Below are positions 26,722 to 28,778 of a DNA stretch of 64,000 nucleotides, piece after piece. The notes under the pieces were generated by a model. That model had not been told where the DNA came from. It ran no database searches and saw only the letters and a list, made by a program, of their open reading frames with translations. Within the stretch, counting starts at the first letter, position 1; every line of letters starts with the position of its first letter. Origin of the DNA: Cladosporium halotolerans (lineage: Eukaryota); NCBI RefSeq assembly GCF_011745625.1, contig NW_027191452.1, positions 124,001-188,000 on the forward strand, given 5' to 3'. A program made the translations under genes and the position numbers.

Positions 26722-28778
26722 ATGGGGTATGTCGAGCCTCCAGCGCCCGCAGTGGCCTCACATCCATCGAGAAACATCTGAAGAGCAGCGTCTGACAACG
26801 GATACAGTAAGGAAAAGACCCACATCAACGTCGTCGTCATCGGCCACGTCGACTCCGGCAAGTCCACCACCACTGGCCGTAAGCATCACCCCATCCCTTC
26901 GATCGCGATTGAGCAACTTGACTCACACAAACAACAGACTTGATCTACAAGTGCGGTGGCATTGACAAGCGTACCATCGAGAAGTTCGAGAAGGTGAGCC
27001 TCACTTTGGCGATTCTGCATCTCGACGTGGCATTTTCTGCACTGCCCCACCATACCACCCCACCGCACCGCTATCTGCGATAAGGCGTCCCGGGATGGCT
27101 TGGCGTGCGCCCGAGGGGTTTCAAGCCCCACGTTCAGTCTTTGCCACGACGAGAAGCAGCATCGCAACACCACGCCTAACAATCAAGAACAGCATGCTGA
27201 CAACCAACATAGGAAGCTGCCGAGCTCGGCAAGGGCTCCTTCAAGTATGCATGGGTTCTTGACAAGCTGAAGTCCGAGCGTGAGCGTGGTATCACCATCG
27301 ATATCGCCCTCTGGAAGTTCGAGACTCCCAAGTAAGTACTCTCACCTCACCCCCGCACCTGCCTTGGATGTCCTGGAACCTGGACGACATGGCTCCTTCC
27401 TTGGTCCAACATGCTCTTACCTTGGGCTGGCTCCCATCATGAAGAAATACAAAAGGCTGGCTCGCCCATCCTCTCTGCTATCGCCAACAAGGAATTTTAC
27501 TGCGACGCTTGCGCAAAGCCCTTCGGAGATCAGACTGCGCTTAACAGACACAACAAGCAAAAGCATACTCGCTAACCTATTCACCCACCACAGATACAAC
27601 GTCACCGTCATTGACGCCCCCGGTCACCGTGACTTCATCAAGAACATGATCACTGGTACCTCCCAGGCCGACTGCGCTATCCTCATTATCGCCGCCGGCA
27701 CTGGTGAGTTCGAGGCTGGTATCTCCAAGGATGGCCAGACCCGTGAGCACGCTCTCCTCGCCTACACTCTCGGTGTCAAGCAGCTCATCGTCGCCATCAA
27801 CAAGATGGACACCACCAAGTGGTCTGAGGCTCGTTACCACGAGATCATCAAGGAGACCTCTGGTTTCATCAAGAAGGTCGGCTTCAACCCCAAGCACGTC
27901 GCCTTCGTCCCGATCTCCGGTTTCAACGGTGACAACATGATCGAGGCCTCCACCAACTGCCCCTGGTACAAGGGTTGGGAGAAGGAGACCAAGGCCAAGG
28001 CCACTGGCAAGACCCTCCTCGAGGCCATCGACGCCATTGACCCGCCCAGCCGTCCCACCGACAAGCCCCTCCGTCTTCCCCTCCAGGATGTCTACAAGAT
28101 CGGCGGTATTGGCACTGTTCCCGTCGGCCGTGTCGAGACCGGTACCATCAAGGCCGGCATGGTCGTCACCTTCGCCCCCGCTGGTGTCACCACTGAGGTG
28201 AAGTCCGTCGAGATGCACCACGAGCAGCTTCCCGAGGGTCTCCCCGGTGACAACGTCGGTTTCAACGTCAAGAACGTCTCCGTCAAGGAGATCCGTCGTG
28301 GCAACGTTACCGGTGACTCCAAGAACGACCCCCCGAAGGGCTGCGACAGCTTCAACGCCCAGGTCATCGTTCTCAACCACCCCGGTCAGGTCGGCGCCGG
28401 CTACGCGCCCGTCCTCGACTGCCACACTGCTCACATTGCCTGCAAGTTCTCTGAGCTCCTCGAGAAGATCGACCGCCGTTCCGGCAAGTCCATCGAGTCT
28501 GGCCCCAAGTTCATCAAGTCTGGTGACGCCGCCATCGTCAAGATGGTTCCGTCCAAGCCGATGTGCGTTGAGGCTTTCACCGACTACCCCCCTCTCGGTC
28601 GTTTCGCCGTCCGTGACATGCGCCAGACCGTTGCCGTCGGTGTCATCAAGGTTCGTACCAAACCTACTCTTCATACTGTTGACCATACACTGACCTGCTC
28701 CTACAGTCCGTCGAGAAGTCCGACAAGGCCGGTGCCGGCAAGGTCACCAAGGCCGCCCAGAAGGCCGGCAAGAAATAG
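26722..28778 (+). CDS. TEF1: Translation elongation factor 1-alpha
   Basis: [53 protein letters not shown]. Introns 26727-26807, 26879-26937, 26994-27212, 27332-27593, 28651-28706; ends KAGKK*. Confidence 0.99.
27411..27575 (+). CDS. Putative nested 54-aa C2H2 zinc-finger microprotein or cryptic coding segment inside TEF1 intron 4
   Basis: Translates [54 protein letters not shown]; matches F-x-C-x2-C-x3-F-x5-L-x2-H-x4-H. Expression not demonstrated. Confidence 0.55.

Follow-up and report, generated by a model that had tools for sequence, protein, structure and literature searches.

The C2H2 zinc finger in TEF1 intron 4

The TEF1 gene, which encodes EF-1alpha, lies on the plus strand of the stretch of Cladosporium halotolerans DNA analysed here (contig NW_027191452.1, positions 124,001 to 188,000; 64,000 nucleotides (nt), referred to as the window). 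Its fourth coding intron contains an open reading frame (ORF) that ends with a C2H2 zinc finger (Table 1). A sequence-only reading of the window had described a complete finger at this place, and our analysis confirmed it, as all residues of the pattern are present and the cut-off of the Pfam family zf-C2H2_jaz was passed. The 79 stop-free codons in the frame of exon 4, closed by the TAA of the branch site, gave a translation identical to the one reported before. The statement that only the TAA in the donor parts this frame from exon 4 was likewise borne out, since the junction reads AAG TAA.

The finger is the sole match to the strict C2H2 pattern in the six frames of the window, and it combines the ligand spacing C-x2-4-C-x12-H-x3-5-H with the conserved aromatic residue and the Leu core. 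The bare spacing occurred on average 0.83 times per simulated 64-kb window. The strict pattern was found in none of 300 simulated windows (analytic expectation 8.5e-5 per window), in agreement with the earlier judgement that such a finger is unlikely to arise by chance. In Pfam the finger matched zf-C2H2_jaz (PF12171) with 24.0 bits (cut-off 22.6, E 4.3e-5), whereas the scores for zf-C2H2 itself (PF00096; 15.0 vs 25.2) and for PF13912 (17.9 vs 25) remained below the cut-offs. The scan against zf-C2H2 that the sequence-only reading had proposed thus gave a match with the jaz family and not with PF00096. The finger is predicted to fold as beta-beta-alpha: AlphaFold2 (AF2), run on the three-row alignment A2, placed strands at E18-20 and E25-27 and a helix at H30-40, with a block pLDDT (AF2's per-residue confidence) of 90-93 over the finger. 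The AF2 prediction from the single sequence was uninformative (pLDDT 43). At the level of sequence and predicted fold, intron 4 was confirmed to hold a real C2H2 zinc-finger coding segment.

Table 1. Features of TEF1 and its fourth coding intron (positions in the window)
Feature	Position	Strand	Remarks
TEF1 (EF-1alpha) coding region	26722..28778	+	six coding exons, 459 aa; spliced translation open and canonical
TEF1 coding exons	26722-26726, 26808-26878, 26938-26993, 27213-27331, 27594-28650, 28707-28778	+	
Exon 4 (EAAELGK...WKFETPK)	27213..27331	+	defines frame 0 for the intron ORF
Coding intron 4	27332..27593	+	262 nt, GTAAGT donor, ACAG acceptor, phase 2 in Lys84
TAA within the donor GTAAGT	27333..27335	+	exon 4 frame, AAG TAA; blocks read-in from exon 4
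Open frame of 79 codons, exon 4 frame	27336..27572	+	from translation
Branch-point motif GCTAAC	27571..27576	+	its TAA (27573-27575) is the ORF stop; 18 nt 5' of the acceptor AG
13-nt direct repeat GC[AT]CCT[GT]CCTTGG, three copies	27355..27425	+	copies at 27355, 27392 and 27413
In-frame ATG with A at -3	27411..27413	+	54-aa product; not conserved
Module homologous to the C-terminal module of P0039	27474..27569	+	BLASTP 23/32 identical, E 4e-17; tblastn same span
C2H2 finger F-x-C-x2-C-x3-F-x5-L-x2-H-x4-H	27495..27566	+	pattern, Pfam, AF2 prediction

Introns at the same site in other TEF1 loci

A scan of metagenomes, anchored on the end of exon 4 followed by GTNNGT and blind to the content of the intron, returned 10 TEF1 loci. 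Six of them have an intron at exactly this site, namely L001 (267 nt), L002 (65 nt), L003 (56 nt), L004 (58 nt), L009 (55 nt) and L010 (124 nt). In L005, L006 and L007 the intron lies a few codons later, and L008 has no intron. A tree built from 368 nt of exon did not resolve these loci (supports 0.05-0.93), and relatedness was judged only by whether introns could be aligned to the window; introns 1-3 are still alignable only in L002 and L004.

The intron of L010 encodes a second complete C2H2 finger. In the frame of exon 4 it reads ..WKFETPK YV YHCSTCDKSFQRQFVLNRHNTSGH KTAVEILANNH followed by a stop, which again is the TAA of the branch motif. This finger exceeded the Pfam cut-offs of zf-C2H2_6 (PF13912; 26.2 vs 25) and zf-met (PF12874; 22 vs 21.2). 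Since the donor is GTATGT, no stop lies between exon 4 and the finger. The donors of L010, L003 and L004 are all GTATGT or GTACGT and lack a stop at the site of the window's TAA. The sequence-only reading had suggested looking for relatives with a stop-free donor, in which exon 4 would continue into the intron without a break. Such relatives were found in L010, where the frame leads into the finger, and in L003, where it leads into a relic of the tail; in the window itself the continuity is broken by the donor stop.

Other copies are degraded to different degrees. The donor of L001 is GTGAGT with an in-frame TGA. The finger of this locus is interrupted by about 21 extra codons, lacks both the first Cys and the final His and gave no Pfam match. 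The N-terminal half of this finger (..YKPACARRL) resembles the window finger, and its tail, NTAGYRKAVETFANIN before the stop, resembles that of L010. L001 therefore links the types of the window and L010, which argues for one ancestral cassette rather than separate captures. The whole 65-nt intron of L002 aligns to the window with 54 of 65 nt identical and keeps the last part of the finger and the branch site out of frame, a short remnant that implies a deletion of about 200 nt. L003 reads KYVALHEKAVDALVD up to its stop, a relic of the L010 tail behind an open donor. By eye, no relic was recognised in L004 and L009. Judged from these loci, the cassette is old but dispensable.

Two further observations were made in these introns. 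On the minus strand of L010, at about 185-125, an extra TEF1 intron lies within the equivalent of the window's exon 5 (after ..EKETKTK), so intron content differs between these lineages. Besides, the phase 2 GTAYGT donors of L003, L004 and L010 lead to an unspliced reading ..PK-Y-V.. that mimics the true EF-1alpha continuation PKY[YN]V, which is probably a coincidence of AA|GTAYGT.

Codon-level conservation and reading frame

The fingers of the window and L010 share 37 of 72 nt, with 15, 14 and 8 identities of 24 at the three codon positions. Eleven codons encode the same residue (C, C, K, F, Q, L, N, R, H, N, H) and have 28 of 33 nt in common, with five synonymous changes (TGC/TGT, AAG/AAA, CAG/CAA, CTT/CTG and CAT/CAC). 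The remaining 13 codons share 9 of 39 nt, which corresponds to the random level. By the Nei-Gojobori method the proportion of nonsynonymous differences (pN) was 0.36, and that of synonymous differences (pS) was saturated. When neutral drift to 51% identity was simulated, the two Cys and two His residues were kept in 207 of 200000 trials. As the ligands were retained through synonymous codons and the other codons are random, selection acted on the protein and not on a nucleotide motif. Measured by its codons, the finger was shown to have been kept by protein-level selection in at least two far-diverged lineages. The earlier proposal to check the Cys/His codons and dN/dS across relatives thus held for the window against L010; for L001 against L010 it did not.

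A similar picture was obtained for the frame. The branch-site TAA starts at intron position 242 in the window, 254 in L001, 113 in L010 and 44 in L003. All of these positions are 2 mod 3, so the net length differences among the four introns that bear a relic are multiples of three. Between the donor and this TAA no stop interrupts frame 0 in any of the four, counted in the window and L001 from behind the donor stop. Dinucleotide shuffles were as open in 408 (window, span 27336-27572), 477 (L001) and 1491 (L010) of 5000 cases. In all 4 introns with an in-frame relic the branch-site TAA keeps to the frame of exon 4, and the relic of L002 is out of frame after its large deletion. Frame-preserving indels, which the sequence-only reading had named as a further check, were accordingly found in the window, L001, L010 and L003 and not in L002. 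The frame is tied to exon 4 rather than to an internal start, which is what run-on translation from exon 4 predicts.

Related proteins and the upstream part of the ORF

When the intron ORF was compared with 1.8 billion representative proteins by phmmer, 557 matches reached E 1e-3 or better, and almost without exception these were poly-finger proteins that scored through many stretches. Among the 150 matches listed, P0039 was the sole close single-module match (53.5 bits, E 2.1e-9). P0039 is a hypothetical two-finger protein of 111 aa from a metagenome contig of 2495 nt (JGI). Over its last 32 residues it is identical to the window at 23 positions (72%; pairwise BLASTP E 4e-17), and both end two residues past the last His. 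The two have in common a module that starts with A[IV]ANK[ED] and the same C-terminal end; they differ in that P0039 has a second intact finger upstream, where the window is dissimilar. P0039 may represent the type of the parent gene or another intron ORF. It begins with Val, as would an ORF opening just after a GT[AG]AGT donor, a resemblance that may hint at an intronic origin. In the ESM Atlas P0039 led only to generic small finger clusters.

Moreover, the window module is similar to finger modules of the ANK-x-FYC kind that recur in a family of Sordariomycete proteins (the P0007 cluster, with KAL0473305.1 of Neurospora intermedia, a 'C2H2-type domain-containing protein', as a member). These share with it the linker ..A.K.FYC..C.. 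followed by a finger, 40-57% identity to four modules in tblastn and the same Pfam families. In contrast to the window ORF they are encoded by ordinary genes and comprise several hundred residues with many modules. Searches for homologous proteins with the window ORF, at near and at longer range, returned none; these blanks are weak, as the near search overlooked P0039 although it was in range. With profile A2 the longer-range search returned P0039 only. Scans of genome-contig and viral-contig collections gave 0 matches, and tblastn revealed no paralogue of the finger within the 64-kb window.

For the part of the ORF upstream of the finger, two proposals of the sequence-only reading were not supported. 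The duplicated peptides LLPW and AGS had been taken as a hint of protein-level constraint and are instead attributable to DNA repeats and slippage: the copies of the 13-nt repeat, which is the source of LLPW, are spaced by 37 and 21 nt, and the first copy is therefore out of frame with the others. A nested microprotein had been proposed to start at ATG 27411. This ATG was found only in the window, and neither the L010 intron ORF nor P0039 has an in-frame Met, so a nested gene would have no conserved start codon of its own. The region 27360-27440 was also considered as a second, decayed finger homologous to the first finger of P0039 and was rejected, as 817 of 5000 shuffles scored equally.

Further features of the locus

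The frame of exon 5 is open backwards through intron 4 into exon 4 and forms a stop-to-stop ORF of 537 codons (27271-28884, plus strand). With two of the three frames of intron 4 free of stops, a gene caller blind to introns would add junk to the N-terminus of EF-1alpha. At the other end of the gene, a probable TEF1 intron in the 5' untranslated region (26616-26671, GTAAGC...TTCCAG) lies upstream of ATG 26722, and the first coding intron splits the start region after ATGGG.

In intron 3 (26994-27212) a motif at 27060-27130, ..C(T)TATCTGCGA[TC][AG]AGG.., is kept across the otherwise unalignable introns of the window, L003, L009 and L010. A G-rich run comes after it, which in the relatives reads GGTGGGGTG. 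The window version of the motif, GCTATCTGCGATAAGG, comprises two inverted GATA-like sites, and a role as an intronic TEF1 enhancer is conceivable. Convergent on the 3' end of TEF1, an intron-less DEAD-box helicase ORF is located at 29356-30945 on the minus strand (523 aa from the first Met), whose 90% cluster has just two members. Of 24 sequencing runs listed for the window, 22 contain a portion of it (shares 0.24-1.00); these shares were not taken to indicate expression, strain or habitat.

Interpretation and alternative explanations

The reading that we favour, and to which we give an even chance, is that the window carries a recently silenced, still intact copy of an intron-resident finger cassette that would normally be expressed by run-on from exon 4. 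An old C2H2 cassette of jaz/met-like type would thus reside in TEF1 intron 4, phased with exon 4 and closed by the branch-point TAA. We infer that it would be decoded only from unspliced, intron-retaining TEF1 mRNA, on which ribosomes from the EF-1alpha AUG would run through exon 4 into the intron and yield a chimera in which EF1A(1-84) is joined to the finger (about 120 aa in all). Such a chimera would be possible in L010 with its donor GTATGT. In other lineages the cassette has been degraded or deleted repeatedly (L001, L002 and L003; none recognised in L004 and L009). In the window the strong donor GTAAGT puts a TAA in frame and thereby blocks run-on; most probably this copy was silenced recently and is a remnant that has stayed intact. 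As to the role of the chimera, one may speculate that it provides an RNA-binding finger made only upon failed splicing of TEF1.

Several points weigh against this proposal. Only two intact intronic fingers were found, those of the window and L010, and an in-frame donor stop is present in the window, L001, L002 and L009. Moreover, L002 and L004, the loci whose introns 1-3 can be aligned to the window, lack an intact cassette; this loss, together with the donor TAA, makes a present function in the window doubtful. The comparison of L001 with L010 over the C-terminal half and the tail gave pN 0.28 with pS 0.30, a sign that at least one of the two branches evolved without constraint. As the exon 5 frame is also stop-free through intron 4 of the window, openness is weak evidence there. 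For the first 46 codons of the window ORF, which contain slippage repeats, no homologue could be detected (817 of 5000 shuffles scored no worse). Besides, EF1A(1-84) is an incomplete GTPase domain, so a role of the chimera is not obvious.

A chance match in a fast-evolving intron would at first be conceivable, since the bare Cys/His spacing is expected nearly once per window, and some 20 strict matches would arise by chance if about 250,000 windows were scanned. However, the strict pattern was absent from all 300 simulated windows, and the homology to P0039, significant both pairwise and against 1.8 billion proteins, together with the second finger in the orthologous intron of L010, excludes this explanation, to which we attach practically no weight. 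It would also be conceivable that the intron harbours a DNA or RNA element such as a splicing enhancer, an intronic enhancer, a snoRNA or a structured RNA, and that the finger is incidental. Conserved non-coding motifs do occur in TEF1 introns, for example in intron 3, and the window and L010 share AACAGACACAAC without a difference, with L001 and L002 deviating from it only slightly. Nevertheless, conservation follows the codons, with random third positions and ligand codons kept through synonymous changes. Furthermore, no Rfam match was found at E up to 1 over 26500-28900, and the fold energy of the intron was worse than that of shuffles (z +1.47), as 188 of 200 shuffles folded at least as well. 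We consider such an element very unlikely.

A neutral relic deserves more attention, even though we regard it as a minor possibility. According to this explanation the intron took up, or arose from, a 3' piece of a P0039-type gene with several fingers; the piece would never have been translated there and would be decaying, perhaps refreshed by ectopic gene conversion from the parent gene. The close identity to the C-terminal module of P0039 with the common end past the last His, the membership in the ANK-x-FYC module family of Sordariomycete proteins, the slippage repeats upstream of the finger and the degenerate or deleted copies in three of the six same-site introns (L001, L002 and L003, with none recognised in L004 and L009) are all consistent with it. 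Neutral decay after a single old capture is, however, not expected to spare both fingers while silent sites become saturated and codons outside the core random (207 of 200000 trials), and independent captures would have to share intron, strand and frame, with both adjoining the branch site. The net length differences in multiples of three and the lack of a paralogue within the window likewise speak against it. Conversely, the cassette might still be expressed in this organism, either by readthrough of the donor TAA on a retained-intron mRNA or by a start at ATG 27411 (54 aa), for which the transcript would have to keep the intron or be initiated within it. The intact finger, the 79 open codons and the A at -3 of this ATG are in line with such expression, and the contrast between the last 32 residues, 72% identical to P0039, and the unrecognisable first 46 codons suggests that the finger module alone is constrained. 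We nevertheless find continued expression rather doubtful: an in-frame Met is missing in L010 and P0039, and with it a conserved internal start; ATG 27411 is preceded by the strong EF-1alpha AUG and by an ORF of 84 codons; and the cassette is deleted in L002 and L004, the loci with introns 1-3 alignable to the window.

Implications and comparison with known systems

Few fungal genes are expressed as highly as TEF1, and species barcoding with its introns assumes that they drift freely. The long retention of a protein domain within one of these introns, in phase with exon 4, means that some lineages have coding constraint on a part of the barcode region, with effects on alignments and rate assumptions. 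In addition, a second reading frame, read only upon failed splicing, may be hidden in a core housekeeping gene. With its repeated losses the cassette offers a natural series for the study of the origin and death of such cassettes, from intact and open (L010) through intact and closed (window) to degenerate and deleted. As a tentative and rather unlikely extension, TEF1 could be a two-product gene in a set of Pezizomycotina, giving EF-1alpha and, from unspliced mRNA and the same AUG, EF1A(1-84)-finger, whose abundance would report on the splicing of the cell's most abundant mRNA. The donor stop of some lineages (TAA or TGA) would then act as a leaky gate or as an evolutionary off-switch. In a full-text literature search, with subscription journals outside its scope, neither a finger nor an ORF was found to have been described for a tef1 intron.

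Among known fingers, those of the families zf-C2H2_jaz (PF12171) and zf-met (PF12874), which comprise the JAZ, matrin and U1 kind, are similar in the spacing C-x2-C-x12-H-x4-H, the aromatic residue before the first Cys and the F/L core. Pfam describes the jaz family as binding double-stranded RNA. Unlike members of these families, the window finger is single, has no known partner domain and lies inside a spliceosomal intron; it also misses the cut-off of PF00096.

Fungal housekeeping genes are known to yield second products, for example the cryptic peroxisomal forms of glycolytic enzymes, which arise by alternative splicing or readthrough. The TEF1 case differs from these isoforms, as the added piece would be a folded finger domain in place of about 80% of the host protein and the frame of the window is closed by a stop. 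Similar to them, however, the cassette is located in an abundant housekeeping mRNA and has a conserved frame, and it would contribute to a second product upon retention of the intron or passage of the stop.

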